From the NCBI GenBank assembly GCA_049700215.1, contig JBNAVT010000013.1, forward strand, positions 17,278 to 50,311: 33,034 nt of DNA. Reading direction: 5' to 3'. The stretch comes from Thermoproteota archaeon (GTDB taxonomy: Archaea; Thermoproteota; EX4484-205; JAAOZP01). The notes beneath the pieces are model-generated. The model did no database searches. It saw only the letters and a list, made by a program, of their open reading frames with translations, and was not told where the DNA came from. Of the stretch, positions 1,054 through 31,633 are shown one piece after another (position 1 is the first letter of the stretch; every line of letters begins with the position of its first letter). Both the position numbers and the translations under genes were made by a program.

Positions 1054-2106
1054 ATGATGAGGAGCACGGATAGGGCGTTCTATGTTTCTCTCGACGCGTT
1101 GAAAAGCCGGGAATCCGTGGAGCACGCGGTATCGGAATGGGTTGAAACCGGTGTGAACAGGATCTACCTGTTGACTAAGCGTTCAGACGGTGTTACGTAT
1201 AGAAGCAGGATTGCAAGGTCAAGGGTTGAAGGCGAGTTTGACGCTTTCGCAGAAACAGTGGGGCGCGCGAAGGATGCTGGGATAGAGGTCCACGCATGGT
1301 TCTGCTGCTATATTGAGAGCGTTAGGGAACCCAGCGAATACCTGAGGACGCATCCTGAGGCTCTGCTTGTAAACAGGCTTGGAAAAACGAATCTGGAGGA
1401 GCCTACGTGGAGCACGGTTGACACCCGTTACAGCACTTACTGGGTTTGCCCAAGCCACACTGGGTACCGCCAGTACTTAACGTCCCTTATGAGGGAAGTG
1501 GTTGAAAACTATCAGGTTGACGGGATTCATCTCGACTATATAAGGTATCCTGAAGCAGTTGAGGGAAGATACTATTGTTACTGCCGTAGATGCAGGGAGA
1601 AGTTTAAAGAGGAATACGGGTATGAGCTTCCAGCCAACGATGTTATTAAAAACAGGTATTATGTTTCAATACTTTGTGAAAACGTCACGGATTCCGTTAG
1701 GGAGTTTTCAAGCCTGGTGCACCGGATGGGTAGGAAAATATCAGCGTATGTTTTCACCGACTACGTGACGGCTATTGAATCCTGCTACCAGGATTGGCCC
1801 TACTTCACCAGGTTTCTCGACTTCCTCTGCCCAACTACCTACGAGGTTTCTCCGGATCACGTGAGGACGCTGGTTCACAGGGCTAGGAGCGTCATGCATG
1901 AGGGGTGTGCGCTGACACCGGTTGTGTTATCGTAGCGCGCGCGCTCTAGGGAGGGTGGTAGAAGGTGGAGCAGGGACAGGACTCCTGAATACGTGTCATC
2001 GGCGGCTAGAGCATGCTTGGAGAGCGGGGCTGACGGGGTTGTTTTCTTTCTCTATGACTCTACGCCGCCTGAAGTCTTAAAAGCCCTGAGGTCTCAGGCT
2101 TTTTAA
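1054..2106 (+). pseudogene. Glycoside hydrolase-like family 10 (DUF187/GHL10) TIM-barrel protein interrupted by an in-frame TAG at 1933-1935
   Basis: GIEVHAW, W-V-C-P and DGIHLDYIRYP motifs. After the TAG the same frame continues for 56 codons, including GADGVVFFLY (last barrel strand), to TAA at 2104-2106. Confidence 0.75.
1933..1949. repeat. TAG-(CG)n motif copy (TAGCGCGCGCGCTCTAG)
   Basis: Read directly; supplies the amber that interrupts the GHL10 gene. Confidence 0.9.
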
Positions 2107-2137
2107 TGTTTTAATGAAAAAAACAGGAAGTAAACTT

Positions 2138-2524
2138 CTATTCTATGCCCCATTTCGCAGTGACTTTCACCAGCAGGAAGATTACGAAGGCTACGATTAG
2201 GAAAGTTATCAGCGTTCCTGTGAAATGACCTATTCTGAACGGTCCAGCCGTAACCTGCTCCCATGCTACGTCAGGCGTGGCGAGCTCGATAATAGGCATT
2301 ATCAGGTCGTTGACTAGCGCCTGCACCAGTGCTCCGAGATACAGGCCGAGTATGAAGGCGACAGCCATCCCGAGAACCCTGTATTTCGAGATGAAGGCTT
2401 TAAACTCCTCCAACAGTCCTTTCGGCGCTGGCGGCGCGGGCGGAGCCGGCTTAGGCTCCAAAAGCTGCCTGATCTTTCTCAACTCCTCCACTATCTCATC
2501 CTCTTTAGACGGCATGCTTAACAC
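2138..2524 (-). CDS. mscL: Large-conductance mechanosensitive channel MscL family protein (may start at ATG 2515)
   Basis: EEFKAFI S1 helix, LGMAVAFILG...LVNDLIMPII TM1, and IGHF...LITFLIVAFVIFLLVK TM2. Confidence 0.85.
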   Translation of the reverse strand: MLSMPSKEDEIVEELRKIRQLLEPKPAPPAPPAPKGLLEEFKAFISKYRVLGMAVAFILGLYLGALVQALVNDLIMPIIELATPDVAWEQVTAGPFRIGHFTGTLITFLIVAFVIFLLVKVTAKWGIE

Positions 2525-2620
2525 TGTAATAGGCTTTTAACCACTGTATAAAGCTTTCCAGGCGTCTGCTGAAAGGATTGTTGAAACGCTTAAAAACAGG
2601 TTTGGAACCATGGTGGCGGG

Positions 2621-3277
2621 TTGAAGATTGACCTGCATGTTCACACCGTCTACTCAGACGGGAGTGGGACGGTTGAGCAGGTTCTTCAGACTGCTAGAGC
2701 AAAGGGTTTAGACGGCTTAGCCATTACTGACCACGCTACTCTCAAGGGGTATTTCAAGGCTAAACAATACTGTGGCGGGATGCTTGTCCTACCCGGGTAT
2801 GAGCTCAGCACAGACGCTGGCCACGTTTTAGTCATAGGGCTGGAACACCTGCCGCCGGGTAAAAGCGTTTTAAACTATGAGGAGCTTGTCGAGTGGGCTA
2901 GGGGCGAGGGCGGGTTAACGGTTCTGGCCCACCCTGCTTTAAACACGGGTAAACTGGGAAGATGGATTGATTGTAAAACTGATGCCGTTGAGGTTCTAAA
3001 CGCTTCATACCCGTTAAGCATCCTCGTGAAAAAGGGTTTGAAAATCTCCATGATGCTGAGTATCCCAGGCGTCGGTGGGAGCGATGCTCATTTCCCAGGA
3101 AGCGTTGGAGACGCGTACACGCTTATCGGGGTAGACAACATGGGCTTCGAAGATTTTTCAAGAGCCCTTAGGGAAGGCAGGGTTTCTTACAACGGCCGGC
3201 TGTCACCCTTATCCTCGAGGTTGAGAATCGGGTTTAGATACTTAGCGTGGAAAACCCTTTCCCCAGAGGCTTTCTGA
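2621..3277 (+). CDS. PHP-domain metal-dependent phosphoesterase
   Basis: DLHVHT..SDG, AITDH, GYE, AHP and GGSDAH motifs. Confidence 0.9.
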   Translation: MKIDLHVHTVYSDGSGTVEQVLQTARAKGLDGLAITDHATLKGYFKAKQYCGGMLVLPGYELSTDAGHVLVIGLEHLPPGKSVLNYEELVEWARGEGGLTVLAHPALNTGKLGRWIDCKTDAVEVLNASYPLSILVKKGLKISMMLSIPGVGGSDAHFPGSVGDAYTLIGVDNMGFEDFSRALREGRVSYNGRLSPLSSRLRIGFRYLAWKTLSPEAF

Positions 3278-3341
3278 AAAACCTTCCAGTCTTCAAGATA
3301 GGCTTAATACTGGTCGCGCTTTTTCAGCCTAGGGCTTAGCG

Positions 3342-4943: not shown

Positions 4944-5065
4944 AAAACTATCGGGCAGCCGGGCTCAGGTTGAAAAATTTTAAGAAACCGTGGGAAACCA
5001 TGGTGAACAATGCTAAACTAAAGGAAGGTTAAAAAACGCCTGAAACTGTTTTAAGCGGAGACGCT

Positions 5066-5317: not shown

Positions 5318-5390
5318 GCTTTTCAACGGGCCGGCTGCTTCAAAAAATCTTTCAGGAAGACCGTTCAGGCTTTGAAAGCACGCTGCATGC

Positions 5391-6077: not shown

Positions 6078-6189
6078 CCTGAGGATTCGGGGGTGAGCAG
6101 GGTGGTTAAAAACTTCTCTCCCACGGATTCTTGAAACCAGTGTTAGCCTTGAGGCGAGCAGGCGAGGCAGGCTGGCGTTTCACATGCTT

Positions 6190-6665
6190 AAGCGCGCGAT
6201 CGTGGAGGAGGAGTTCAGGGGGAGAATGCTTGGAGAGGAGCCTGTGAAACACTGGCTTGAAACAAGGTTCAAAGAGGCTTCGGAGTTCGCTCCCCTCGGG
6301 GTTGTTTTCGACACTATAGAGGTTTCAGTAGGCTGGAACAGGGCGGTAAGTCTCTACCGAAGCCTTGTTGAAGCGATGCGGGCTGTTAAGGGAATGCTCT
6401 CCGCATCCGCTCATGCTTCACACTTCTACCCTCAGGGCGTCTGCTTAGCGCGCGCCTAGGCGCGCGCACCGGAGAAGTATTACAGCGACGTGTGGGACGC
6501 TGCGATGAAGACTACTCTCGAAAACGGCGGGTCGATAAGCCACCACCACAGCGTCGGCAGGCAGAGAAGAAGATGGCTTAAGGATGAGCTCGGCCCTGCC
6601 CTCGACATTCTCAAAAAGGGTTAAGACTGCTCTAGACGATAAGGGTTTGTGAACCCGGGGGTGAG
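6190..6665 (+). pseudogene. Remnant of an FAD-linked oxidase (alkyl-DHAP synthase/GlcD-like), C-terminal domain only
   Basis: DTIEVSVGW, HASHFYPQGVC, then past an in-frame TAG: PEKYYSDVWDAAM...GGSISHHHSVGRQR. Further frameshifts precede KTALD..NPG. The N-terminal FAD-binding domain is absent. Confidence 0.8.
6446..6467. repeat. TAG-(CG)n motif; contains perfect 20-bp palindrome GCGCGCGCCTAGGCGCGCGC (6448-6467)
   Basis: Read directly. Confidence 0.9.
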
Positions 6666-6707
6666 CCTAAGGCAAGCTGGAGCAGAGCCTTGAGAAGGCT
6701 TCTTTAA

Positions 6708-8135: not shown

Positions 8136-8243
8136 TCGTTAGAACCTTGCTTAGGCTGATTTAAACCCTGCTGGCCGCATGCGGGCTGAACCGTCACCGG
8201 GCACGGTTAAATACTTGCTCAAGCCTGTTTAGAACGACCTGGA

Positions 8244-10092: not shown

Positions 10093-13000
10093 TTGTCAAC
10101 TTTTGAACAGACAATGAGCAGATTAGAAGCCGGTTACAGGTCCGTTAAGCGTCTGGGGAAAGCGTGGGCCGGAATACTCGTCGCGAGCATGATGCTCCTG
10201 CTCACACCTCTACTGCAGCCAGCCCCCCTGCAGGCTGGAGTAACCAGCCCGAGGGTCGTGCTCTACACTCCGACTCAAAACGGCAACCTGTTTACCGTCG
10301 AGGGGTTTGCAAGCTTCACCATCCCCCCTGGGCAGCCTAGTCAATACCATGTTCAAGTAGTATGGGAGCACGAGGGGGAGCACGAGGGCACGGTTGTTTT
10401 CCAGAACGATTCAGCGGAGCTCCCTCCGCTGAGGGACATGGGGGGAGGGAAATACGAGTTTAATTTCACCGATTCTCAAGCGTTGAACACGGGTGGAGAA
10501 TGGATCGTAAGGGCTAGGCTCTACCACCAGCGGCCCCCTGGGAACGATAATCAGGCAGACGCTTTCGCGACGATCATAATCGAGGCTTTCACCGTGAGCG
10601 TCACCACTGAGCCGGAGGGCTTGAGCATAACTGTAGACGGGGCTGTCTACACTTCCCCGCAAACCTTCACCTGGCTAAGCGGCACTGTGCATACGATCGG
10701 CACCGTGTCGCCGCAGCTTGGGGACGGCACGATTTACACTTGGGTTTCCTGGAGCGACAGCGGGGGAATCAGCCACACTATTGCAGCGACTGGCGACGCT
10801 GTCTACGTCGCCTACTTTAGGAAGCAGTTCTCAGTATGCTTCAGTCAAACAGGCCTCGACGATTCTGCAACCGGGACTGTTGTCACAGTTAACAGTGTTT
10901 CTAAAAGCATGAGTGAACTACCGTTCAGCAACTGGTATGACGAGGATGCTTCAATAAGCTATGGCTACGCTCCCATCGTGGAAAGCTCTGAAACAGGGAA
11001 ACGTTTCAGCCTCCACTCCATCACGGGGCCCGCGTCACCCTTCAGAGTCACCGCTCCCACTCTCGTCACCGGAAACTATGTTATGCAATACTGCTTGAAC
11101 GTTGGAACAGAGCCGGAGGGCCTGGCGGCTATTCCAGGGGGAGGATGGTATGACGCGGGCTCCTTCGTCACTTTAACCGCTCCCGGAGAAATACTTGTTT
11201 CACAGGGTGTTCGCTACAGGTTCAGCCATTGGAGCGTCGACGGAGCGTCGCAGGGCAGCGGGGTCAACCAGGTTACTGCGAAGATGGACATGCCGCACAC
11301 GGCGATAGCCCACTACGTTACTCAATACTACTTGTCTGTAGACTCCCCACACGGGGAGCCTAGCCCGGAGAGCGGATGGTTCGACGCTGGAACAGTGATA
11401 ACCGCGTCAGTAACCTCACCCTGGCCTGTTGATGCCGTCGACACCCGGAGCTTCTGCACCGGGTGGACCGGTACGGGAAGCGTCCCGCCCTCTGGAGCAG
11501 ACACTACAGTAACCTTCACTATCGACGCGCCTTCAAGCATAACCTGGGCTTGGAAAACCCAGTTCCGAGTCGTCTTCACCCAGACGGGCGTGGGAGACGA
11601 CTACACCGGGGTGGTGGTGACTGTAGACGGCGCCGACTACGGGAGGGAGGGACACGCAGCCTGGTGCGACGCTGGGGCAAGCATCGTCTTCACCTACAGG
11701 AGCCCGCTGGTTGCCGCAGCCAACCGGAAGCAGTACGTGCTGACAGGCGTCGACGCTTCCACACCCCTGACTGTCACAGGGCCTGTCACGGTCACAGGCA
11801 GCTATAAAACACAGTACTACGTGGAGGTTTCCACGAGCCACGGAACCGTCAGCCCGGAGAGCGGATGGTTCGACGCGGGTTCAACAGTGGAGATAGCCGC
11901 CGCCGCGCCTCCGACGGTTGAAGGCGAGCGCTTCACCTGGCTGGGATGGGTGGGAACCGGAGCCGGCTCCTACACGGGCATGGAGAACCCTGCTCAAATA
12001 ACTGTTAACAGCCCGATTAGCGAGACAGCCTCCTGGGCACACCAGTATTATCTGACTGTCGACTCGCCCCACGGCACTGTCGGCGGCGGAGGCTGGTATG
12101 ACGAGGGCTCGACAGCGTACGCTACAGTAGCGCCGCTTACGGTAGACGGGCCTGACGGTGCACGCTACGTCTTCACGCATTGGAGCGGCGACGCATCTGG
12201 AACAATATCGCCTTCAAACCCGATCACGATGGACAGGCCTAAGACGGCAGTAGCCTGCTGGAAAACACAGTTCAGCATCGTCTTCACTCAGGAAGGCTTA
12301 GACGGGACAGCAGCCGGGACGGTTGTCACGATAGACGGTTCAGCAAAAACCTTCAGCAGCCTTCCTTTCACAGCTTGGGTTGACAACGGGGCTTCAGTCG
12401 GCTACGTTTTTGAAGAAGTTGTTTCAAGCAGCGCCCCGGGTAGACGGTTCAGGCTTAACAGTGTAAACGGGCCGGCTTCACCCGTAGTCGTCACAGCCCC
12501 CTTAACCGTAACAGGCAGCTACGTTGCTCAATACGAAGTCACCTTCGCGCAGAGCATGCTTGACGATTCTGCAACCGGGGTTGTAGTGACGGTGGGCGGC
12601 GTCGGGAAGACGATGGCTGACCTTCCTTTCACAGGCTGGTTTGACAGCGGGGCGACATACTCCTACAGCAGTATTGTCCCAAGCACGGAGCCGGGTAAAA
12701 GGTTCAGGCTGGAGAGCGTAACCGGGCCGGCTTCGCCGATAACAGGCCCCGGCACGGTTGCAGGCGTCTACGTGCCGCAGTACAGGCTGGTCTTCACACA
12801 GACAGGTTTAGACAACACTGTAACCGGGACTGTCGTCACGGTTAACGGTGCTCCGAAAACCATTTCGGAAACACCGTTCGCGACAGACTGGCTTGACCAG
12901 GGTTCCCTGGTTTCCTTCGAGTACTCCGACCCTGCGGCAAGCCTGGTTGAAGGCAAGCGGTTTAGGCTCGTGAGCGTGAGCCACGCTTCCCCGCTGACAG

Positions 13001-17839: not shown

Positions 17840-17851
17840 TAGCGCGCGCTA
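17840..17851. repeat. Perfect 12-bp palindrome TAGCGCGCGCTA (motif consensus)
   Basis: Read directly; intergenic, 22 nt after the regulator stop. Confidence 0.9.
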
Positions 17852-19434: not shown

Positions 19435-19485
19435 ACGGCTGGGGCGCTGAAAGTTTAAAAACGATGACTCCATCCCCGGATTAAG

Positions 19486-20520: not shown

Positions 20521-21590
20521 AAAACTCCTGGAAAAACCTGGCAGTAATCATCGTAGCAGCCTCCCTATTGTTGAGAACCCTGCCCGCTAAGCCGCAGGAG
20601 AACTATCTGACTGGGCTCAACATGGAGGTTGAGTTCGCTGAAAACGGGGTTGCCAGGGTAACTTTGAAGCAACACCCGTTCGACGCATCCGGCAGAAGCC
20701 TTATTTCGAACACTGAGGTCGTGGAGAGAGTAATAGGCGAGGAGGACTCGATCATAAGCCTGGTCCTGCTCTTCTTCACGACGGATCCTTCTAAAACATC
20801 CTACGTGGTCCACTCGCATTCAAAGCTGGACGCTGGCGAACAGGTCTTATGCAACACGGGTACACCCGGCGAGATGAAGAGGTTCGAAGGCGCTGTGACG
20901 CTTACCGTCGACATACTTCTGAACACTACTAGCAGCCTAATACCGCTCGGAGGAGACGTTTACCAGATTGTTGTCACAGACTATTTCACGCTCACAGACC
21001 CGCGCAGCTGGATAGACGTTATGGATTTCAGGTTCACCGGGAGCGTTAGCCTCCTGAACTTTTCAGTAGACCCCTCCTGGGCTAAGCCTCCTGCAGTAGC
21101 GAGCCCAGCGCGGCTGCAATGGTTGAACATGAACGAGGCGGATGCCCCGGACAATTATGTTCTCACCCTCCGAATACCCGGGGTCGTTCTCTCGACAACT
21201 CCCCTAAGGCTTAGGGCGGAAGTGTCTGGAGCAAGGTTTTCAAACGCGACCTCAACCCTCCGGGTGGGTGTTAGAAACACTGGGGGCGACGAGGGAGTGT
21301 TCACCGTAGTTCTGCTCGAGGAGGGTTTTGAACAAGCCAGGAAGATAAGCCTTAAGCCGGGTGCTGAGGCCTGGGTAAGGTTCCCGGTTCACGCGCCGGA
21401 CGGTGGGGAGCTAGTGGTGAAAGTATACGGGGGAGGAGAGCAGCTGGACGAACAAAGGCTAACCGTCGCGGTTGAGAAGCCGGTGGAAAACCGGTTACCG
21501 ATGCTCAGCGCAATAGGCTTAATCCTGATGGTTATCGGCGGCTTCACGATACTTCTTTACCTCGGCGAGAGGCTTAAGCGTCAACGATAG
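20517..21590 (+). CDS. Secreted, membrane-anchored hypothetical protein with CARDB-like Ig domain
   Basis: Signal peptide, V.VRNTGG.EG..TV motif, C-terminal TM helix; overlaps the upstream stop by 4 nt. Its stop is the TAG of a motif copy. Confidence 0.7.
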   Translation: MKNSWKNLAVIIVAASLLLRTLPAKPQENYLTGLNMEVEFAENGVARVTLKQHPFDASGRSLISNTEVVERVIGEEDSIISLVLLFFTTDPSKTSYVVHSHSKLDAGEQVLCNTGTPGEMKRFEGAVTLTVDILLNTTSSLIPLGGDVYQIVVTDYFTLTDPRSWIDVMDFRFTGSVSLLNFSVDPSWAKPPAVASPARLQWLNMNEADAPDNYVLTLRIPGVVLSTTPLRLRAEVSGARFSNATSTLRVGVRNTGGDEGVFTVVLLEEGFEQARKISLKPGAEAWVRFPVHAPDGGELVVKVYGGGEQLDEQRLTVAVEKPVENRLPMLSAIGLILMVIGGFTILLYLGERLKRQR

Positions 21591-21599
21591 CGCGCGCTT
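21585..21599. repeat. TAG-(CG)n motif CGATAGCGCGCGCTT (identical 15-mer at 25053-25067)
   Basis: Read directly. Confidence 0.9.
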
Positions 21600-22332
21600 C
21601 GGGTTGAACACGGATCCTGAGACGAGGGTGAGGGTTCACGACGACGCGCGGGCGGCGATGTTGACAAGCGGGTGCTTAACGGTTCGCGTTGAGAAGGAGG
21701 GGGGATGGCGGGTTGCGTTCCAAGACGGCGGCCGCGTAGTCACGAGCAGCGGCTGGAGAGCAATGGGTCTGATGGATACTCCTGAGGGAAGATACATGAG
21801 GGAGCAGCTTTCCCTGGGCGTTGGCGAATGCGTCTACGGGCTGGGAGAGCGGTTCACAAGCTTCGTTAAAAACGGACAGACGGTTGAAACGTGGAACGAG
21901 GACGCTGGAACAGTCAGCGAGCACGCTTACAAGAATATTCCCTTCTACTTGACGAACAGGGGCTACGGGGTTTTCGTAAACCATCCGGAGAAAGTTTCCT
22001 TCGAAATAGCCTCTGAAAACGTTGAGAGAGTGCAGTTCAGCGTACCCGGGGAATACTTAGACTACTTCCATATATACGGGCCGTCGCCGAAGCAGGTTTT
22101 AACACGCTACACTGCTTTAACCGGGAGGCCAGCACCGCGATGACGCTGGAGGCGAGTAGAACAGGGGGGAAGCATCAGGGTTAGGGCTGACGGCTATTCT
22201 AGAAAATGGTTCCTGCTTCTAAGGGGAGTTGGCAGGGTTGAGTCGGTCGAGGGAGGGACGGCTAGAGCGGAACCGCTGGGCACGCTGATAACCCCGCTGG
22301 AAGACGCGGAACACCTATCCATCAGCCTTTAG
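21598..22332 (+). pseudogene. yicI: GH31 alpha-xylosidase (YicI-like) remnant lacking the N-terminus and the catalytic barrel
   Basis: GECVYGLGERFT.FVKNGQ.VETWNED.GT.SE.AYKNIPFYLTNRGYGVFVNHP...RYTALTGRPA is joined directly to a YicI-like C-terminus (TLEASRTG, frameshift, SIRVRADG..KW.LLLRGV...GTLITP...ISL*). Confidence 0.85.
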
Positions 22333-22491: not shown

Positions 22492-22516
22492 TTAAGCCGA
22501 ATGCTTAACACGGAGA

Positions 22517-23581
22517 ATGTGCTACGAGAGGGGTCTTGCAGCAGTGATGCTTGAGGAAGCCGACCGGGTTGCTCAAGTAGAGTTCATCTCGCACACGGGC
22601 TTCGTGAGGAAAGTCTCGGGAATAGACCCGGTGAAGCATCCTGATGAAGCCCTTAGAAAAACGTATGGTGCTCTCGACCTAGACATGATCTGGGCAACCT
22701 GGGACCCGGTGCACCCGTGGGATATTCTTGGGAGAAACACGGAATACTTCAAGACCAGGGTGGACTCGTGGTCGGAAGCATACCCGACGACGTGGAGAAC
22801 AGTCTTCAAAGTTAAATCCGTTGAAGACGTTCTGGAGTTCAACCCTCTGGAGGAGTGGAGAATACCGGGTAGAGAGGAGCTGGCTGAGTTCTTCAGAAGA
22901 GAACACTCCGCGAAGCAAGCGTTCTACAGGAGCCAACTGGTTCCAGGAGGCAAGTACCAGACGTGCTTCATGTGGCTGATAATGACTTTCGGATTGGAGT
23001 GGACTGTTAAGGCAGCTCACCGCGACCCGAAGCGTTTCGAAAAACTCTTGGATAGGTTCCACAGGGTTTCGAGACTCGAGTTCGAAGCGTGGGCGGAGAC
23101 AGACATTAAGGTTTTCATAAGCCACGACGACATCTGCTCCACTAGAGGACCATTCTTCCCGCCGAAGTGGCTCAGGAAACATGTTTTCCCACGCTACGAA
23201 GAGCTCTGGAGCATTCTGAAGCAAAAAGGGATAAGGGTTCTCTTCTGCTCGGACGGCGACGTCACCACGATAGTTGACGACATAGCTAGGGCTGGGGCAG
23301 ACGGGTTCATACTGGAGGAGTGCAGCGACCTAGGAAGCATAGTTGAGAAACACGGCTCCGACAAGGTTATAGTGGGGGGAGTGGACATCGGTGTTTTAAC
23401 ATACGGGAGTGTTCAAGAAGTTGTCAGCGAGGTTAAAAAATGCTTGAGGATAGCCGGCGGATACCCGGGCTACTTCATAAACGTCTCAGGCTCTATTCCT
23501 GACAACGTTCCCATGGAGAATCTTGAAGCATATTTCGAAGCCTGTAGAAAATACGGCAGGAGGCCGGTTGAACTAGCCTAG
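22517..23581 (+). CDS. Uroporphyrinogen decarboxylase-family (URO-D/MtaA-like) TIM-barrel protein
   Basis: HDD....GPFF.P.WLR..VFP.Y, FCSDGD, GADG, IVGGVD..L..GS.QEV..EV and IPDNVP.EN motifs. Confidence 0.85.
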   Translation: MCYERGLAAVMLEEADRVAQVEFISHTGFVRKVSGIDPVKHPDEALRKTYGALDLDMIWATWDPVHPWDILGRNTEYFKTRVDSWSEAYPTTWRTVFKVKSVEDVLEFNPLEEWRIPGREELAEFFRREHSAKQAFYRSQLVPGGKYQTCFMWLIMTFGLEWTVKAAHRDPKRFEKLLDRFHRVSRLEFEAWAETDIKVFISHDDICSTRGPFFPPKWLRKHVFPRYEELWSILKQKGIRVLFCSDGDVTTIVDDIARAGADGFILEECSDLGSIVEKHGSDKVIVGGVDIGVLTYGSVQEVVSEVKKCLRIAGGYPGYFINVSGSIPDNVPMENLEAYFEACRKYGRRPVELA

Positions 23582-25008
23582 TGCGCCGCCCCTTTTCGTT
23601 TTCAGACGGCTTGAGACGTTTCGTCGGAAAAGCGCGCGCGCTCACCCTCACCACCATAGTGCTTGTAAGCGCCGCGGTCTTCGCATACTGTACTTCAAGC
23701 TTGGCTGCGGGATGGGCTGACCCGCCTGTAAGGCTTCGAGACCCGGGAACGCTGGGCGTCACAGTAAATCTTTACGATGACGATACAAGCGCGAGAGTGG
23801 ACGTGACTAGCCAAGGAGTCCTTGCGCGTGTCCGGAGAAGCGCCTTCATCTGGGACGACTACTCCGACGATCCTTTCACCAGCGGGAGGCTCACCGTTAA
23901 CGATGGAGCATGGAGCTGGAACCCGGCGGGATACGTGGCGGTAACAGCAAGCTATTTAGCCCAGACTTGGGGAGGCGCGTGCGTCGCCTACTATTCCACC
24001 AGCCCACCTGCTGGAGCCAGCGTGATACACGTGCTTGTGAAGGAACTTCACATTACGAATGCGAACAATCAGTACAGTGGGCTTATCACTGCTAATTCAC
24101 CCGTGCTTTTCAACCTGATTGGGTATCGCCGTGGAACCGGGTCCAACAGGTTTATAACTATAAGGAGGTTTTCAGGCGCCTGGTCCACTCTCGTCACTGC
24201 TTCATTAACACTGGCTGAGAACACTTGGTTCATCCTGCTGGGAAGGAGAGAATACTCCGGATCAGTTGGTTTAACCGTCTATGACTCTGCTGGCGTGCAG
24301 CAAGGCAGCCCTATAGGCGCCGCGGACACAGCGTTCCAGGTTAATCTCGTCGGAGTCGGCGTGTACAGGGCAGGGGTCACCATAACGGCGCGTTTCGACG
24401 ACTTCGTTGCCTGCGCCGACGCTAACCCTAGCTTCGTAAACGTCACGGGGCTTGAAGAAGGCTGGACGGTCTATCTCTACGATGAAAACGGGAACCCTGT
24501 AAACCAGGCTACAGCAGGCCAGGATGGGAAGGCGAGCCTAAATGTTTTAACCAGGCCCATAGTCAGGAATGCCCGCTTCGAAATAAGGCTTGGAGAAACA
24601 ATCATCCTGCCCCCGCAATCGTTCAGCGAGGTTGTCGGCGGCGACGTTTACGAGTGCAGCATAAAAGACATGGTTATCCTAGGCTTTCAAAACCAGGATT
24701 CTAAGGCTTACAGCGTCTACCTTAAGGTTGAAAGCATCCAGGTTCCGCCGGGATACTCCGGCTCGATAAACCTGTGGGTTGGGCCGGATGCTGGAACAAC
24801 ACCTATTCAAATAGTTGGAGACAGTGTTCTAGTGGACACTACTTCAGAAATAAACTTGAATCCATCTGATACTGGCCATATTCACAGCACATTCTCCCTG
24901 AGCCCGGCACCGCCCTCGCAAATAGTGCTTTCTCTCAGCCTCCACTACTATATTCCAAGCTCCAAGGTTGAAGTAGAGTATCCTGTTGAGGTGAGTATGC
25001 ACAGGTAG
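23581..25008 (+). CDS. Secreted protein, possibly a TasA/archaeal-bundling-pilin-like subunit with inserted beta-sandwich domain; true 5' end uncertain
   Basis: Hydrophobic signal segment, then PPVRL...TSARVDV; beta-rich body; C-terminal ILGFQNQD.KAYSVYL...IQI.GD...LHY...VEYPVEV; no C-terminal anchor; lies upstream of a signal peptidase. Confidence 0.6.
   Translation: MRRPFSFSDGLRRFVGKARALTLTTIVLVSAAVFAYCTSSLAAGWADPPVRLRDPGTLGVTVNLYDDDTSARVDVTSQGVLARVRRSAFIWDDYSDDPFTSGRLTVNDGAWSWNPAGYVAVTASYLAQTWGGACVAYYSTSPPAGASVIHVLVKELHITNANNQYSGLITANSPVLFNLIGYRRGTGSNRFITIRRFSGAWSTLVTASLTLAENTWFILLGRREYSGSVGLTVYDSAGVQQGSPIGAADTAFQVNLVGVGVYRAGVTITARFDDFVACADANPSFVNVTGLEEGWTVYLYDENGNPVNQATAGQDGKASLNVLTRPIVRNARFEIRLGETIILPPQSFSEVVGGDVYECSIKDMVILGFQNQDSKAYSVYLKVESIQVPPGYSGSINLWVGPDAGTTPIQIVGDSVLVDTTSEINLNPSDTGHIHSTFSLSPAPPSQIVLSLSLHYYIPSSKVEVEYPVEVSMHR
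23631..23642. repeat. Motif core, 12-bp palindrome AGCGCGCGCGCT
   Basis: Read directly; immediately before the signal-peptide hydrophobic segment. Confidence 0.8.
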
Positions 25009-25022
25009 GGAAAGGGGGTTAG

Positions 25023-25153
25023 ATGCATGCCACGCCAACCTGCCTGGGGAAGCGATAGCGCGCGCTTATTCTGACCTTAAGCACGATTCTGCCGTGGTTG
25101 AGACAGAGCGTTTAAACAATATTGTTAGCCCCACCGCGGGGGTGCGTCCATAG
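25023..25153 (+). pseudogene. Probable collapsed gene remnant (start plus tail fused at a motif copy, 25053-25067)
   Basis: G-rich RBS and ATG at 25023, reading MHATPTCLGKR to the motif TAG. A different frame after the motif reads YSDLKHDSAVVETERLNNIVSP... and stops at 25153, 3 nt before the next ATG. Confidence 0.45.
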
Positions 25154-25156
25154 GAG

Positions 25157-26299
25157 ATGGAGCCACCCAACCCCTTCAAGTGTTCGCGGCGCAGTCTTCA
25201 TCTAGCAGGCTATTTCCTCCTCGCCATCCTCATCCTACTCGCCTTAGCAAGGTTCCTAGACCTACCGGTTTCTTTCTTCATGGTTTCAGGCAGGTCGATG
25301 GAGCCAACCCTTTTGATCGGCGACCTTGTTTTCGGCGTTAAGGCCAACTATACTGTTGGCGACATAGTTATTGTCGAGGGTGCTAACAGAGTCAACTGCA
25401 TAGTCCACAGGGTTGTGGAAATAACCCTGAGAAGCGTCACCACCAAGGGCGATGCTAACCCTGGCCCGGATAACCCGGTGGGCAGGGAGCACGTGCTCTA
25501 CAGGGTTTTCCTAGTTGTCCCAAGGCTCCTCTGGATCCCGCCGCTTCTAGCCGTTTTATTCCTCACGGGGCTCAGGTATTTGAAGAGTCTTCTCCACGGG
25601 GCGGAGCTCGGCAGGACCCTATTAACCATCGTCCTTTTCTTCTCCGTTTTCGACATCGCCACTATGACGATGATCCCAATATTCCATGTTAACCAGGCTA
25701 TAGAGGTTAAGAGGCCCAGCATAGTTCTGCGGTCAGCATCCCTCTCAGGAGACTACCGGTTTTTCAAAGCCGTCTACGGGAGCGTAAGCATGCTGGAGCC
25801 CATCAGAGTGGGTTGGGTTAGGATCAACATAACCAGCATGGAGTTCACACCCAGCGAGTATTTTCTCGAGAACAACACTCTGATAGTGAGCATTCCGCAA
25901 GGGGTTTACGATGTCCTATACGCAAACTCGTCTTCAACCGCGTGCAGCTTCCGGGTATACTGTAACATCGTCTTCGACAAAGCTAGCCTCTACGGCTCCT
26001 ACCCTGTTGTTTTAAGCTGGAGGAGGCTTGAAGTCAAGACGGTTAACGACACTTTCACGGTTTTCAACAATAATCCCGTCGCCTTCAACGCCACGTTTGA
26101 AATCCAGTATTACGATCTCGACCAGTTTGGAAGACTCTACCACATTGGCTCAGACAGGTTTAACAAGACGCTTCAGCCTGTTTCAAGCTTCACGGTTAAG
26201 CCTGAGAAGAAGGGCGTCACCTGCTACATCATAATGAGGTATGTTTTCCTTGGAGACAGCGTTATGGAGTCCAGGAAGGTGAATCTGGTTGACGGCTAA
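25157..26299 (+). CDS. Signal peptidase I (S26B, archaeal/SipW-type) with long C-terminal TM and extracellular extension
   Basis: VSGRSMEPTL..GD, GDIV, IVHRV and TKGDAN..PD motifs (Ser-His type), followed by two TM helices and a beta-rich domain. Confidence 0.85.
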   Translation: MEPPNPFKCSRRSLHLAGYFLLAILILLALARFLDLPVSFFMVSGRSMEPTLLIGDLVFGVKANYTVGDIVIVEGANRVNCIVHRVVEITLRSVTTKGDANPGPDNPVGREHVLYRVFLVVPRLLWIPPLLAVLFLTGLRYLKSLLHGAELGRTLLTIVLFFSVFDIATMTMIPIFHVNQAIEVKRPSIVLRSASLSGDYRFFKAVYGSVSMLEPIRVGWVRINITSMEFTPSEYFLENNTLIVSIPQGVYDVLYANSSSTACSFRVYCNIVFDKASLYGSYPVVLSWRRLEVKTVNDTFTVFNNNPVAFNATFEIQYYDLDQFGRLYHIGSDRFNKTLQPVSSFTVKPEKKGVTCYIIMRYVFLGDSVMESRKVNLVDG

Positions 26300-26906
26300 G
26301 ATAATGATTCGGCTTGAAAAAAGGCTTCGAAGATTGCTGCTGCTCGGCGCCCTGGCCTCAGTGGCTACGGGAGTATTCTTCATAGTGCTGCTAAGCCTCC
26401 CGCTCGTGGTTTTCGACGGCGACATGCTGAACGGGAGTGTCGCAATAACATGGTACGACTTGAAGAACTACGGTGAGCCTGTTGAACACCCAGGCTTGGC
26501 AAGCATCCCCCTTCTTTCAATACCCGTCTTCGTCACAGCGTTCTTCAGCATAGCCACTGGCTTGTTAACAATAGTTAAGGCTTCCAGGAGCAGCATGGTC
26601 AGCCACATTATTGTCGAACTCCTACTGGGTGGTTTAGAGGCCTGCGTGGTTTTCACCGGCGTGTTCTACTCTCTGAGGTTCAACGTCATCCACGCTGTCT
26701 CAGTTCTTTCAACACAGGTCGGCGGAGCCGGTTCAGCAGACCTGCTCGTCGTCCAGGGCTCGGCTAGAAGCGAGACCCTAGCGTCAACACTGATAAGACA
26801 GTTCTACCCGCTGGTCTTCGCAAACACTCTGCTCACGGTTCTCGTAGCGATAATAGGCTATGAGACTGCTAAGGCTTTAGAAACCCCTGTTGAAGGACAG
26901 GTTTAA
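26289..26906 (+). CDS. Hypothetical integral membrane protein (about 4 TM)
   Basis: Four hydrophobic segments; overlaps the signal peptidase stop, suggesting translational coupling. Confidence 0.65.
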   Translation: MTAKIMIRLEKRLRRLLLLGALASVATGVFFIVLLSLPLVVFDGDMLNGSVAITWYDLKNYGEPVEHPGLASIPLLSIPVFVTAFFSIATGLLTIVKASRSSMVSHIIVELLLGGLEACVVFTGVFYSLRFNVIHAVSVLSTQVGGAGSADLLVVQGSARSETLASTLIRQFYPLVFANTLLTVLVAIIGYETAKALETPVEGQV

Positions 26907-26963
26907 CGTATGCAGCGCGCGAAAGCAAGTCTTAATAATCTAGGGGGCTGTTTTCAAAATGGC

Positions 26964-27359
26964 TTGAGAGACGAGGCTTCAAGATGGTTAAAGGAGGGGG
27001 TTTGGGACCTAGAGACCGCGAAGATACTTCATAACTCGGGACGGTACAACGCAGCCGCCTACTATTCACACCAAGCTGCTGAGAAGGCTGTCAAGGCCCT
27101 ACTCTACCTTGTGAACGAGGCTGCTTGGGGCCACAGCGTGAGAATACTGTTGGAGAGGTTTGCGGAGAAGAAGAAGCTGATGGTCAACGAGCTTCTACAA
27201 TACGCTAGGGAGCTGGACAGACACTACATACCTTCACGATATCCTAATGCGCATCCTGCGGGAACGCCTCATGAAGCCTATGATGAGAACACGTCCCTGA
27301 AAGCCGTCGAAGCCGCGGAGCGTTTAATCAGCTTCGCGAGGAAATTCATCGAGACGTGA
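26964..27359 (+). CDS. HEPN-domain protein (MNT-HEPN module)
   Basis: RW...DLETA...YN.AAY.SHQAAEKAVKA, GHSV..L and LDRHYIPSRYP. TTG 26964 is a more likely start than the track's 26910. Confidence 0.9.
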   Translation: MRDEASRWLKEGVWDLETAKILHNSGRYNAAAYYSHQAAEKAVKALLYLVNEAAWGHSVRILLERFAEKKKLMVNELLQYARELDRHYIPSRYPNAHPAGTPHEAYDENTSLKAVEAAERLISFARKFIET

Positions 27360-27371
27360 GGATGCTTACTC

Positions 27372-27773
27372 TTGCATGGCGTTGAGGATGTTGTGAAAAG
27401 GCTGGCTTCAAGATACAGGCTTACAGCAGTAATACTCTTCGGCTCCCGCGCCAGAGGAGACTGGGGACCCTGGAGCGACTACGACCTGCTAATAATAGGA
27501 GGCTTTGAGAAAAACTATGTTGACAGAATAGGCGAGATCCTGGAGCTCCTCTCAGACGTAAAGATCCCGGTGGAACCACACCCCTATACTCTTCAAGAGG
27601 CTTTGCAGATGCTGGGTGAAGGAAACCCGCTGATGGTTGACGCGATTGAGGAGGGAATGGTGCTTTACAGGAGTGGGGACTACGACAGGCTGCTCGAAAC
27701 CTTCCGGAGGCTCAGGGAAAAAGGCATGCGGAGAAGCAGCACATCCATTATCCTGCCTGAGAAAGACGCTTAA
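27372..27773 (+). CDS. Minimal nucleotidyltransferase (MNT), partner of HEPN
   Basis: ILFGSRARGD....SDYDLLII motif. Confidence 0.9.
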   Translation: MHGVEDVVKRLASRYRLTAVILFGSRARGDWGPWSDYDLLIIGGFEKNYVDRIGEILELLSDVKIPVEPHPYTLQEALQMLGEGNPLMVDAIEEGMVLYRSGDYDRLLETFRRLREKGMRRSSTSIILPEKDA

Positions 27774-27974
27774 CCCCTGTTCCCCTAAGCGTGATTCCAA
27801 AGCAAACTGATTCCAGCGTGCTAAAGCCTAGGCGGCAACACACGCTTGAAACACGCGGTGGCGAAAACCGTTTTGAAAGAAACCAGTGCAACCCGCCTCC
27901 TTGAAACGCGTCAGCAGCATTTAGCATGGCCTCTGGCGACGCGCAAACGGGTTTGAAAAAAAGATTTTCGGGGG

Positions 27975-28202
27975 TTAAGTGGCTTCCAAGAGAGTCTCAG
28001 TGCTTCTAACGCCCTTTAAAGACAGTATTTTCAAAGCTGTTTTCCTCAAGCCCTTAACGTCCTCAGCCTTGATGAAGACCACGGCGTCGAACCTTCCGAA
28101 AACAGGGTAAGCGTCTACAACACCCTTAATCTTCGAAGCAGCCTGACAGATTTCAAGAGCAGCCGCGTAACCTGCTTTAACAAGCATGACTCCCCTAATC
28201 AT
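27975..28202 (-). CDS. Stand-alone Lrp/AsnC ligand-binding (RAM) domain protein
   Basis: 75 aa; GV...Y.VFGRFDAVV and GVRSTETL; no HTH. Confidence 0.85.
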   Translation of the reverse strand: MIRGVMLVKAGYAAALEICQAASKIKGVVDAYPVFGRFDAVVFIKAEDVKGLRKTALKILSLKGVRSTETLLEAT

Positions 28203-28206
28203 GACT

Positions 28207-28434
28207 CTACACCTCCAGCGCTATCAGCGTCTCGGTTGCAAGCACGCCACTGACCCTGCTGATCTCAGACAACAGTGACGCAAGCTCCTTGAAATCACTA
28301 ACCTTCGCGTCCACAACAACGTCAGTCCTACCGAAGGTTGGGAAAACCATTTTAACGCCAGCCATGCCTTTTATTTTCCTAGAAACATCCTTATGCTTCC
28401 CGGGACCGGTTTTAACCAGGATACATGCTTTCAT
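28207..28434 (-). CDS. Stand-alone Lrp/AsnC ligand-binding (RAM) domain protein
   Basis: 75 aa; ACILVK..PG, FGRTDVVV and GVLATETLI; no HTH. Confidence 0.85.
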   Translation of the reverse strand: MKACILVKTGPGKHKDVSRKIKGMAGVKMVFPTFGRTDVVVDAKVSDFKELASLLSEISRVSGVLATETLIALEV

Positions 28435-28457
28435 TTCTACACTTATAGTGGGCGGAG

Positions 28458-28475
28458 GTTTTTATATATTCTTTT
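28458..28475 (-). promoter_or_regulatory. Putative BRE/TATA for the RAM-domain pair
   Basis: Minus strand AAAAGAATATATAAAAA about 25-40 nt upstream of the ATG at 28434. Confidence 0.5.
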
Positions 28476-28630
28476 CCCTCTTCACGAAAATCCCTAAACC
28501 CTGGCACGCTCGTCCCCAAGCCGCCAAATCAGAAAAACCCCGGGGAAGAACAGTCTCGCAAGCATCTTGAAAAGAATTCGTAAACCAGGCTATTAACGGC
28601 TGGAAACCCTTGTTTCAAGGAGGATTCAGC

Positions 28631-28730
28631 CTAGCGCGCGTTTCTCGGAAAAACAAGGATTAGCTCAGAATCGTTCAAGACGGTTTCTAGTGGAGGGCTT
28701 GAGGCTGTTGCTCCAAAGTTAGCGCGCGCT
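28631..28730. repeat. Two motif copies (CTAGCGCGCG 28631-28640; TAGCGCGCGCT 28720-28730) bracketing a 79-bp segment
   Basis: Read directly. Confidence 0.85.
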
Positions 28731-28925
28731 CCACATGGTCGAAGCTTTCTGAAGGAGTTCTTTCGCACTCCCCCGTCAAGGAACAGCCCGAGGAAGACGC
28801 CGGTGTCAAAGAGAAGCACTCAGTCGACGCTCCTCCAAGCCTCGTGCTGCAGCCCTACAGAATTAGATTCCAACCTACCACAACGCCTCAACTTTTTCCA
28901 GTCAACCCTACCTGACGCTGTGAAG
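28731..28925 (-). pseudogene. Remnant vapBC-like toxin-antitoxin pair (antitoxin tail plus PIN-domain N-terminus)
   Basis: ...RVDWKKLRR...SVGLQHEAWRSVD* abuts (TGA-GTG at 28822/28819) MLLFDTGVFLGLFL, a PIN-type hhhDT start, which breaks off at the motif at 28730. Confidence 0.55.
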
Positions 28926-28999
28926 TGCCCAGCCGCCCGTGTTTCAAAACGAAACCCGTCAAGATGCGGAAAAGCCGGAATAAGGATTAGGAATACTTG

Positions 29000-30334: not shown

Positions 30335-30355
30335 GCCACAAAGCCCGCAAAAATG

Positions 30356-30372
30356 GAATATATAAACTTTTC
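30356..30372 (-). promoter_or_regulatory. BRE/TATA of gdhA (leaderless spacing)
   Basis: Minus strand GAAAAGTTTATATATT about 25-35 nt upstream of the TTG start. Confidence 0.6.
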
Positions 30373-30476
30373 CTTAAATCCCATTTAAACATATCGGAAA
30401 AAACATCCATCAAGCATCGCCAGGACACTGGCACACGTTAAATACGAGGAGGCAAATATAGATTTAGCAGGTGGAA

Positions 30477-30639
30477 ATGCCATTCGAGGAAAGAAGTGAA
30501 AGGTTGGCGAAGTTTCCGATTTACGACGCGCGCACGCGGCGAAGTAAAGCTGGTCGTGGATACTGAAAACAGGCTGGAGCCAATACGCCTGGAGAAAATA
30601 TTGTTCCTCAGGGAAGATTACCCGGAGCTATTCACCTAA
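30477..30639 (+). pseudogene. Small gene remnant with a frame break at a (CG)n motif
   Basis: AGGTGG RBS and ATG (MPFEERSERLAKFPIY), then CGCGCGCACGCG, then a different frame GEVKLVVDTENRLEPIRLEKILFLREDYPELFT*. Confidence 0.5.
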
Positions 30640-31052
30640 CATAGCACGCGCGGGGACATGGGTTTGAGGGGGTGGGGTGGCTAGTGCGCGCTAGTGGATG
30701 CCACAGGATTGCATGATAGGCGAGAGCGATAAAACAATAAGGCCGGAACTCTACATTGCATGAGGTATTTTTGGGGCATTGCGCCATGTGGTTAGCGTTA
30801 GGGGGAAGCAGGAAAATCGTCGCGACCAATAATGTTCCTAAACACCCATAGCGCGCGCGCGCTAGAGTTATATGGAACGTAAAGAGCACGCCCGAATCTT
30901 TTTATATACAATTTTATGACTCCAGCGCACGCTAAAATGCTTGGGGTGCTACTGCTAAAGCCACTGATGCACTTCTTTATGCTAGGGAAAGTTTGAGGTT
31001 GTTGGAAGATTAGAAAGGAGAAGGGAGTTGTACAAATTAGCCCGTAGCGCGC
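30527..31052. repeat. Cluster of six motif copies (30527, 30642, 30681, 30849, 30924, 31045), including perfect 16-bp palindrome TAGCGCGCGCGCGCTA at 30849-30864
   Basis: Read directly. Confidence 0.85.
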
Positions 31053-31190
31053 CTTTATTTAAGTCTTAATCAATAGTTTATAAAAAGCTTCATTCCACAT
31101 ATCCCCCTTCAGTCCCTCCAGAGTACGTGAAATCTGACGAAGACTTTTCTCTTCCTCCTCCTTATTTTTCGGAAACTCGAATAGCCGGCA

Positions 31191-31517
31191 TTAATTGCCG
31201 TTAATTAAAATCAGGCTTGGAACAGCCCAAATCTCCGAAATTAAAACTCCGCTGTCCTTATTCTCCTCTTTCAGCTTTCTCAGCAAGTTCTTGTTATCTG
31301 AGCAGACTATGACTCTCTTAAACCTCTCCAAGGCGCTTTTGATGTTCTTCTCAGCATCGGACCTTCCAAGTTCTATGTTTATCGCAGTCTTGAGAGAAGG
31401 TATTTCTACGTCAGGCTTCTCCTCCCCTATCTTAGCAACCCTGCAAACCAGCCCCCTACCTGTAAGCTCATTGACAATCCAGTAGACGTAATACTCGTGC
31501 TTGATGCTCGGCCTCCT
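31191..31517 (-). pseudogene. 5'-truncated PD-(D/E)XK nuclease-like domain
   Basis: Not in the ORF track (no start codon). Reads RPSIKHEYYVYWIVNELTGRG...KPDVEIPSLKTAINIELGRSDAEKNIKSALERFKRVIVC and begins exactly at the (CG)n motif 31516-31527. Confidence 0.6.
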
Positions 31518-31633
31518 ACGCGCGCGCCTGAGCCATACTTGTTCTTGTTAGGTTTAACGTTATGCTGGATTTTTATCTCTTGAATTAAAAGTTATATATA
31601 TTTCCAGTAGCTAATAAGAACTATGGTGAACAA

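Follow-up and report, generated by a model that had tools for sequence, protein, structure and literature searches.

The HIP1 palindrome (GCGATCGC) of cyanobacteria is tolerated in coding frames, and excision of a Tc1/mariner-IS630 transposon leaves a footprint of TA, the two element ends side by side, and TA. In break repair, polymerase theta (Pol theta) adds nucleotides and thereby creates microhomology; in the same source, archaeal alternative end joining is described as observed only in Haloferax and Sulfolobus islandicus, its enzymatic basis being unknown (PMC8708640). [quoted passage not shown] The present analysis concerns a 33,034-nt stretch of archaeal DNA, termed the window (contig C13:17278-50311 of the source genome, G000), and a short alternating G/C palindrome that recurs along it and in related genomes, which are likewise given G numbers. 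The unit is a 10-nt palindrome, A(GC)4T (AGCGCGCGCT), with about half of the copies lying inside TA..TA and so extended to TAGCGCGCGCTA.

Comparison with relatives shows this fixed unit at places where DNA has been lost and rejoined, with the flanking bases gone. The motif is probably a stereotyped end-joining (repair) scar that drives gene erosion in one sub-clade of a hot-spring genus of Thermoproteota. Copies build up in decaying genes and non-coding DNA, which selection leaves free to take them, and the motif so appears to mark gene breakpoints. Among the origins named in the original prediction, which had been made from the window alone, end joining with synthesis of self-complementary GC tracts remains the best fit.

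Probable scars at deletion joints

The main comparison was between G000 and G002, which is syntenic with it at 91-95% identity. The G002 sequence compared was 452 kb, about a fifth of that genome, with 325 kb in kept BLAST blocks. Among 51 collinear block junctions there were 26 clean large indels, defined by one allele of at most 45 nt and another of at least 50 nt. In 11 of these the short allele has at least five alternating G/C nucleotides precisely where its two sides meet, whereas length-matched windows of non-coding DNA would give 0.88 such cases (binomial test, P=3e-10), and a twelfth carries a degenerate copy at its joint. Where the short allele holds 1-21 nt of filler, nine cases in 11 reach the same threshold and a tenth is degenerate. 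Seven of the 12 scar-bearing indels belong to G000 and five to G002, so the process has been active in both lineages since they split; within the aligned blocks, deletions marked by a scar have cost G000 12.0 kb of DNA and G002 5.2 kb, and scar joints are seen for deletions of a few nt up to 9.9 kb.

Not one of the 12 long alleles carries the motif at both of its edges, and in about 10 neither edge has it. The tract pre-exists at the breakpoint in one or two cases and is absent in about 10; in an 88-nt case the long allele, in G002, has a degenerate copy 13 nt inside its edge. G009, G010 and G007 are contiguous across both breakpoints of a 464-nt deletion, G010 and G009 across the left breakpoint of the 9.9-kb deletion, and open frames of 785, 303 and 264 codons cross breakpoints. 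Outgroups and open frames that run across the breakpoints in this way show the long allele to be ancestral and the events to be deletions, in agreement with the earlier proposal of a scar written at DNA joints.

A GNAT-like (acetyltransferase-like) gene, intact in G002, has been scarred independently at three breakpoints in three species: in G000 (Table 1), in G006 by a different 5' deletion (..aaaata/GCGCGCGC/caacga..) and in G010 (..ataata/GCGCGCG/accatc..). Since all three breakpoints lie inside sequence that is coding elsewhere, they cannot be remnants of one pre-existing site. The gene has also been lost in G009, by an ATGC microhomology deletion with no filler.

Small events follow a similar pattern, with 2-30 nt of original bases swapped for the unit; some replace 8-30 nt by AGCGCGCGC(TA). 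As original bases are lost while the unit is gained, the unit is added after resection. The AG or GC that ends the flank serves, at several joints, also as the first bases of the unit, giving 0-3 nt of microhomology between flank and insert; a fixed-length unit that is copied from a microhomology primer, or joined to the end in that way, is thereby indicated. Over 302 kb of aligned blocks, six alternating runs are conserved, 17 are found only in G000 and 11 only in G002, and GCGC is involved in 16 of the 174 small indels (at least 3 nt). The motif is therefore gained and lost fast.

The unit, its distribution and its sites in the window

All 18 window sites listed in the original prediction were found in place, and its eight + strand copies of the exact 9-mer TAGCGCGCG were confirmed, with two more on the - strand; 0.17 are expected, and none of 100 dinucleotide-preserving shuffles of the window reached 10. 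TAGCGCG occurs 13 times in the window against 4.04 expected. Throughout G000 the 10-mer AGCGCGCGCT is present in 118 copies, whereas three control palindromes matched in composition have 1, 2 and 2, and merged TAGCGCGCG-type sites number 210. The GC run had been thought to vary in length: units with one GC more or fewer than (GC)4 do occur, but length is not free. In 274 kb of non-coding DNA, counts of A(GC)nT for n=2 to 6 are 54, 28, 86, 18 and 1, against 34-65, 1-4, 0-1, 0 and 0 for the control forms T(GC)nA, A(CG)nT and T(CG)nA. Among 271 sites, T stands at flank position +1 in 86% and A at +2 in 49% (background 27%), with no conservation further out (relative entropy about 0). The sharp peak at n=4 and a flank signal that ends at +2 indicate a defined unit rather than a loose repeat. 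A microsatellite, miniature inverted-repeat transposable element or long repeat was considered and rejected, as the flanks of 60 sites have only TA in common and carry no signal past +2.

Frames of at least 200 codons span 11.9% of the 210 motif sites, compared with 77% of 5000 random sites, which bears out the view that copies, unlike those of HIP1, are kept out of coding frames. Across non-coding stretches of at least 100 nt the density is about 0.9-1.1 per kb. Motifs are also enriched at the contig ends of G000, with 24 of 381 lying within 300 nt of an end against 9.3 expected, including one cluster 53-56 nt from the end. The sequences past the motif at these 24 ends all differ, save for one allelic pair (C41_L/C69_R); an insertion sequence end at contig breaks was rejected on this ground, and the enrichment may be put down to assembly-graph forks at polymorphic scars. 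The start of C41 and the end of C69 share the same 54-56 nt past the motif, have cores of GCGCGCG and GCGCGCGCGC and differ in nearby bases; they represent either strain variants or paralogous cassettes. In the first 80 nt of C28, at the contig end, a CGCGCGCG run lies just upstream of a sequence resembling a tRNA T-arm/acceptor 3' half (..GGGTTCAAATCCCAC..) and possibly represents a scar within or next to a tRNA gene. The commonest 8-mers of G000 include AGGAGGCT (737), GTTGAAAA (653), TTGAAAAC (626) and GCTTGAAA (512), about 64 being expected for a random 8-mer, and CTTGAAA/TTTCAAG-like words crowd the non-coding window segments 27774-27975 and 28540-28960.

The 12-mer TAGCGCGCGCTA has 35 copies in G000, 28 in G008, 26 in G002, 14 in G007, 11 in G009, nine in G006 and four in G010; G011 and G013 have one each and eight other species of the genus none. 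In a phylum sample of 401 genomes, only four outside the genus hold 4-12 copies. These are G285, G105, G142 and G389, for which about 0.1 is expected; none has a strong match to the paralogue AEP2 described below, and G285 also carries four copies of the reversed control. Between species, orthologous copies differ through point mutations. Logan contigs of run X1, probably from the source sample and produced by another assembler, match nine window scars (17840, 25056, 26914, 28631, 28720 and those within 30642-31045) without a differing letter, and in contigs of two runs from other studies, X3 and X4, the long alleles of a relative resembling G002 are present; a further run, X2, covered only parts of the stretch. 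Among the matches listed, no X1 contig spans 21588 or 23631 (they stop at 21412/21793 and 23560/23721), which leaves the two best window joints without read-level support. An X4 joint, 23586>27114 with GCGCT between, was given no weight, as one of its sides is only 30 letters long, with 88% likeness, and the joint derives from a relative.

Within the window, full copies with a core of 7-12 alternating G/C lie at eleven sites (1935, 6192, 6448/6460, 17842, 21590, 23632, 25058, 26915, 28634, 28722 and 30851) and degenerate copies with CG>TG/CA-type changes at 23578, 30527, 30642, 30681, 30924, 31045 and 31516 (Table 1). Intact genes had been said to hold no full copy. This stands for the 6.5-kb open reading frame (ORF) at 10093-16635, which has no alternating G/C run of six or more, but short runs do occur inside window ORFs at 1263, in a gene remnant, and at 3859 and 4201 in the amidohydrolase gene (6 nt, without TA flanks). 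The association of copies with truncated genes holds against relatives for the FAD-oxidase-like gene (6190), the GH31 (yicI) gene (21588), the GHL10-like gene (1933) and the graveyard of gene fragments at 30500-31550.

Table 1. Scars and associated remnants in the window, and scar joints of G000 and G002 (slashes bound the insert; positions are window positions)
Feature	Position	Strand	Remarks
Scar TAGCGCGCGCGCTCTAG	1933-1949		Its TAG terminates a GHL10-like gene remnant (ORF 1054-1935)
Scar AAGCGCGCGAT	6190-6200		Joint of a deletion of about 1.07 kb taking the 5' part of the FAD-oxidase-like gene; 3' remnant at 6191-6660
Double scar TAGCGCGCGCCTAGGCGCGCGCA	6446-6469		Within the FAD-oxidase-like gene remnant
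Old scar, full 12-mer TAGCGCGCGCTA	17840-17851		Downstream of an AsnC-type regulator gene
Scar TAGCGCGCGCTT plus 7 nt	21588-21604		Takes the place of 332 nt comprising the GH31 promoter and gene 5' end
GH31 (yicI-like) gene remnant	21604-22143	+	Also has an internal 1336-nt loss at about 22135
Degenerate old scar CTAGTGCGCCGCC	23578-23590		3' end of a URO-D/MtaA-like gene; CTAGCGCGCTGCC in G002, CTAGCGCGTCTACC in G009
Scar A(GC)5T, ..ggaaaa/GCGCGCGCGC/tcaccc..	23631-23642		Exact joint of a G000-specific deletion; replaces 784 nt
Young patch scar	25056-25067		GCGAT/AGCGCGCG/CTTATT in G000, GCGATCCTTATT in G002
Scar CAGCGCGCGAA	26913-26923		Common to G002 (TAGCGCGCGCAA); locus about 130 nt shorter than in G009/G007
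Scar CTAGCGCGCGT	28631-28641		Common to G002, there mutated to CTAGCGCATGT (C45 10741)
G000-specific patch scar TAGCGCGCGCTC	28720-28731		G002 has TGG where G000 has GCGCGCGC (C45 10657)
109-nt internal gene fragment (30529-30637)	30527-30655		Left scar copy CGCGCGCACGCGG, right scar copy TAGCACGCGCGG
157-nt internal gene fragment (30694-30850)	30681-30864		CTAGTGCGCGCTA abuts on the left, TAGCGCGCGCGCGCTAG on the right
Degenerate copy AGCGCACGCTA	30924-30934		Non-coding fragment graveyard 30500-31550
Partial copy TAGCGCGCC	31045-31053		Window sequence
Copy CTACGCGCGCGCC	31516-31528		5' end of a broken minus-strand gene; minus-strand TAG seven codons past an ATG
Joint ..ggctta/GCGCGCGC/taatgc..			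G000, GNAT-like gene; replaces 320 nt
Joint ..cgtta/GCGCTCGCGCT/accgtc..			Replaces 9908 nt
Joint ..cccgtt/AGCGCGCGCGCacattg/tccg..			Replaces 464 nt within a 303-codon frame
Joint ..gccggc/GCGCGCT/atttta..			G002; replaces 1750 nt, 264-codon frame cut

At the 1933 locus, G008 has the gene end followed by GCGCGCGC and a 130-nt 3' remnant, G002 has gtGCGCGCtaaggag alone, and G007, G009 and G006 have neither gene nor motif. The scars of G008 and G002 come with larger, nested deletions, and three lineages (G000, G008 and G002) are thus scarred. Between window positions 6162-6182 and 6191, G008, G007 and G006 hold about 1070 nt. The 332-nt segment missing at 21588 is kept in G002, G009 and G007, and in G002 the 785-codon GH31 frame crosses the breakpoint; the further 1336-nt loss from this gene lies between GCACTGC direct repeats without a GC scar and is an ordinary microhomology deletion. 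At 23631, G002, G009 and G007 retain 0.8-1.0 kb with the motif at neither edge, and the X3 contigs are of the long form.

The scars at 23578, 26914 and 28631 are older and common to relatives, and those at 25056 and 28720 are young patches; the site at 17840 has orthologues TAGGCGCCGC in G002, TAGCGCGCTA in G009 and TAGGCGCC in G008. In the graveyard, homologues of 30529-30637 belong to genes that continue past both ends in G006 (C11) and G009 (C6), and the homologue of 30694-30850 belongs to a gene unbroken across both ends in G008 (C3:138812-138968); a single X1 Logan contig (30608-31245) covers both scars at 30681-30864 with no other letters. Window 31166-31314 matches C4 of G002, where a GCGCGC scar comes next.

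Turning to the surrounding sequence, G000 comprises 2.09 Mb in 85 contigs at 49% GC. The window genes are archaeal in look, and for the glutamate dehydrogenase the closest named record is a hot-spring 'Thermoproteota archaeon' metagenome-assembled genome at 81% identity. The product of the ORF at 10093-16635 (2180 aa) is probably a large surface protein, its sole Pfam match being to InlB B-repeats (Flg_new_2), in three divergent stretches. At 26910-27773 a HEPN gene (149 aa) lies next to one for a minimal nucleotidyltransferase (133 aa), the two forming the usual toxin-antitoxin-like module. No RNA gene was found in the window, either as an Rfam match at the gathering threshold or as a tRNA.

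Competing explanations and a possible repair route

Several observations weigh against an end-joining scar as the sole or sufficient explanation. No scar is present at 14 of the 26 clean indels; seven of these, two intein-like cases included, show 3-21 nt of overlap or microhomology and the other seven have other filler or none, so that the scar pathway is not the only deletion route. Profile searches of the 17 genomes of the genus found Ku, the PolX thumb domain and RVT_1 in none (0/17 each), and hence no known joint-adding enzyme, although Pol theta was not searched for. No source of a template for the unit was found, extended fillers such as GCGCGCACATTG being unique in G000. All of the genomes are metagenome bins, known from sequence alone. 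Two window loci, moreover, bear on whether the motif preceded the break. In G009 the motif is present at 21588 with the gene intact, and the G000 joint lies 12 nt off, at an AAACA microhomology, so the motif came first there and a second break later; the nested deletions at 1933 fit re-breakage at a pre-existing motif as well as they fit fresh scarring.

Two large inserts were seen in the same genome comparison. A 1529-nt in-frame insert of G000 (C24:13499-15029, compared with G002 C45:63308) directly follows ..CPWC of a radical-SAM-like gene, is missing from G002 and is intein-like, and G002 has a 1578-nt insert after a GPPGTGK P-loop (C7:13278-14857) that is not in G000.

The 21588 and 1933 loci lend weight to the rival that survives best, in which the motif comes first: a pre-existing intergenic GC palindrome would act as a fragile site (Z-DNA, cruciform or nuclease target) and be kept at one edge of the deletion. 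The G009 allele at 21588 and the nested deletions around a persisting motif in G000, G008 and G002 count in its favour, and the degenerate copy inside the long allele of the 88-nt case, the persistence of the 17840 and 23578 scars at orthologous sites in several species and the hypervariability suggested by the contig-end enrichment are compatible with it. It is nevertheless at odds with the roughly 10 of 12 long alleles that have no motif at their edges (for the 784-nt case, in three genomes), with the GNAT-like gene, where three species have been scarred at three breakpoints within what is coding sequence in G002, and with patch replacements that create the unit where the sister sequence is unrelated; the origin of more than 100 copies of a precise 10-mer would also be left unexplained. 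A fragile site as the origin of the motif is thus unlikely, and fragile-site behaviour is probably a secondary property of the scars.

An excision footprint, left by a cut-and-paste transposon with GCGC termini and TA duplication, and with deletions arising by intramolecular transposition before excision, would account for the fixed unit length, the lineage-specific distribution, the enrichment at contig ends and the modal TA-GCGC/GCGC-TA architecture, which is like a Tc1/mariner-IS630 footprint. It had been one of the candidates of the original prediction and has fared poorly. Among 809 motif pairs with cores of at least 6 nt, none bounds an element with extended inverted repeats, and a search for AGCGC..GCGCT ends with 16-nt arms gave 13 matches, all due to the motif itself. 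Post-motif sequences at contig ends differ, the allelic pair excepted, no DDE_3 (IS630) transposase was found in G000, and the copy number of TnpB, another rejected candidate, does not follow that of the motif (26 motifs and no TnpB in G002; one and six in G011). A missing element is not proof, as multi-copy elements can drop out of metagenome bins. The sites themselves also argue against excision: A stands at +2 in only 49% of sites while T stands at +1 in 86%, small events delete 2-30 nt of original sequence that insertion and excision would keep, and GCGC overhangs should mostly give A(GC)2T, which is not in excess (54 against 34-65 in controls). We consider a footprint distinctly improbable.

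A site-specific recombinase core of integron- or dif-like type, also among the early candidates, would produce deletions and module shuffling by recombination between two copies. One copy is left at joints, modules are flanked by copies on both sides, and G008 lacks 3.3 kb with three genes (window 23581-26906) between the positions of the 23578 and 26914 copies, all of which would suit such a system. Recombination of this kind needs a copy at both parental edges, however, and with none of the 12 long alleles having both and about 10 having neither, recombination between two copies is ruled out for these joints; joints also hold extra non-motif bases and truncated units, and patch replacements are not recombination products. 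The idea is very unlikely to be correct. Owing to the missing 3.3 kb, the HEPN/nucleotidyltransferase pair of G008 comes directly after the URO-D-like gene.

A functional intergenic signal, whether a terminator element or the binding site of a chromatin protein or dimeric regulator, might be suspected from a palindrome so strongly excluded from long ORFs, with a few positions conserved across species and a somewhat greater density in convergent (65 copies in 50.7 kb) than in divergent spacers (44 in 72.7 kb). Yet every spacer type, tandem spacers included, has about one copy per kb regardless of the neighbouring genes, lineage-specific runs outnumber conserved ones by 28 to six in aligned blocks, the flanks are not conserved past 2 nt, and copies occur in gene remnants and exactly at deletion joints, so that this explanation is hardly credible. 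An assembly, library or binning artefact, the main alternative raised at the outset, might be suspected from the fact that all the genomes are metagenome bins and that contigs tend to end 53-56 nt past the motif. It can be dismissed with near certainty: the motif is shorter than any assembly k-mer, is present in seven independently assembled species-level bins and absent from eight others of the genus, differs by point mutations between orthologues and is reproduced at the window scars in Logan contigs from another assembler, runs of other studies carry related joints, and the contig-end pattern fits real population polymorphism at the motif.

If the motif is an end-joining scar, its regularity calls for a particular kind of joining. 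A double-strand break would be followed by resection, and a short self-complementary GC template or oligonucleotide would pair with each 3' end by a microhomology of 0-3 nt, the end then being extended until the unit is complete. Both tails, being identical, would be mutually complementary and stably paired at high temperature, and would therefore anneal in full register, so that ligation leaves exactly one unit. The peak at n=4 and the lack of an n=2 excess argue against free-running tailing and against annealing of 4-nt sticky ends, and fit a template of fixed length. Units with n=3 and n=5 would arise by later slippage, and old scars would decay through CG>TG/CA changes and slippage. Such scars are probably preferred sites of further breaks, with genes being nibbled around a persisting scar. 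Taken by itself, this two-tail template scheme is tentative, and possible rather than probable. Copying in trans from other scar loci was rejected as a source of the unit, since each extended filler occurs just once in G000 and no 7-mer of the flanks recurs above three times.

The search for enzymes suggested with the original prediction returned no Ku, PolX/TdT-like polymerase (TdT, terminal deoxynucleotidyl transferase), reverse transcriptase or, in G000, IS630 transposase, and a single weak lead. Prim-Pol (PF09250) gave one weak match in the 17 genomes, in G002. The Y-family polymerase was discarded, as it does not follow the motif distribution, and the CCA-adding enzyme has a single copy in each of 15 genomes and in G010 is split into two pieces of one frame, being present in 16 of 17 in all.

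PriS is the catalytic subunit of archaeal primase and a member of the archaeo-eukaryotic primase (AEP) superfamily. The lead, which is labelled AEP2 here, is a PriS-like primase-polymerase paralogue of 273-297 aa, encoded in G000 at C17:241-1062, where its start overlaps the stop of a RadA-like gene directly upstream (both within C17:1-1062); other loci are G008 C7:378924-379781 and G002 C43:33926-34777. The motifs DxD, sGxGxH and hD are present, and D97, D99, S147, G151, H153, H155 and D205 are invariant in 27 sequences. The Pfam match is to PF01896 (E 2e-7), and a confident structural model (predicted local distance difference test score 81.7) has P. abyssi PriS as its best PDB match (E 1.8e-11), with non-homologous end joining (NHEJ) polymerases lower in the list. 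These features place AEP2 in the AEP superfamily, with a predicted PriS-like fold. Judging from the PrimPol with terminal transfer and MMEJ activity described in PMC11724360, the enzyme class is a plausible one.

AEP2 was found full-length, near full-length or as fragments in G000, G002, G008, G006, G007, G013 and G009, and in none of ten other genomes of the genus; a profile search of the 401 genomes gave strong matches only in seven genomes of the genus and in G023. One homologue is labelled Candidatus Brockarchaeota. Between genomes whose overall identity is about 92%, AEP2 reaches only about 60%. It is multi-copy, and several copies are scar-truncated, with fragments in G000 on C64, C69 and C85 that are followed by a conserved hairpin-like stretch; for this reason the correlation may only mark the clade or a decaying gene family. 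Two genomes speak against the lead: in G010 (89% complete) the 10-mer is present 16 times and AEP2 was not found, and G023, with a more distant homologue, shows no enrichment (three copies of the 10-mer against nine of the control). AEP2 is accordingly a weak candidate for the scar enzyme, with a correlation confounded by relatedness, and its involvement is rather doubtful. More speculative still, and on balance unlikely, is a dedicated break-repair route in which the self-complementary 10-nt AGCGCGCGCT would serve as a universal heat-stable splint or microhomology for any two ends, made or copied at unit length by the RadA-linked AEP2, with its signature written into the genome as the main engine of gene loss in the clade.

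Comparison with known systems

The literature searched, which leaves most subscription journals and supplements outside its coverage, contained no description of the motif or of a fixed palindromic filler, and the occurrences of the 10-mer in print are, among the matches listed, primers or constructs. The scar looks like the signature of an undescribed way of mending DNA breaks. End joining in archaea that lack Ku is an open question, and a fixed joint sequence would be a natural barcode of the pathway, by which past break-and-rejoin events could be read from genomes and deletion rates and size spectra measured. Comparative genomics could guide the hunt for the enzyme, with production or addition of AGCGCGCGCT by a candidate as a simple biochemical read-out. 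The scars also expose gene erosion underway, in the form of nested deletions round persisting scars, and offer a practical annotation marker for pseudogene boundaries in the lineage. Were the transposon footprint to prove correct, the finding would be less novel, and would still be the first such archaeal footprint landscape known to us.

Among described systems, the filler of alternative end joining (Pol theta-dependent MMEJ, TdT N-nucleotides, LigD/Ku NHEJ) shares with the scar the extra bases at an exact deletion joint, the prior loss of flanking bases and the 0-3 nt of microhomology between flank and insert. Its inserts are random or locally templated, whereas the scar is one fixed palindrome, A(GC)4T, with no reuse of flanking sequence found. 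The Tc1/mariner-IS630 footprint resembles the scar in being a short, TA-flanked palindrome of fixed length scattered in non-coding DNA; it differs in that here no element or DDE_3 transposase was found, original bases are deleted and the A of the TA is present in 49%. HIP1 is likewise a lineage-specific, short, GC-rich palindrome, over-representation here being about 100-fold, but the scar is depleted in long frames and sits at deletion joints, and no C5 methyltransferase was found in G000.

Ab initio or hairpin-elongation synthesis would be expected to yield just such a heat-stable self-complementary GC unit; it is known in vitro, as long tandem arrays, and the scar consists of single chromosomal units at joints. 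Z-DNA-forming (CG)n deletion hot spots also tie an alternating CG palindrome to large deletions, and the fusion scars of Borrelia hairpin telomeres leave a comparable mosaic of gene fragments split by a short palindromic vestige. Unlike either, the scar has a tract of only 8 nt, is usually not in the ancestral allele and shows no inverted duplication of its flanks. Finally, repetitive extragenic palindromes and bacterial interspersed mosaic elements (REP/BIME) are imperfect 20-40-nt hairpin palindromes associated with a RAYT Y1 transposase, and the scar, at 10-12 nt, has neither a loop nor conserved flanks.

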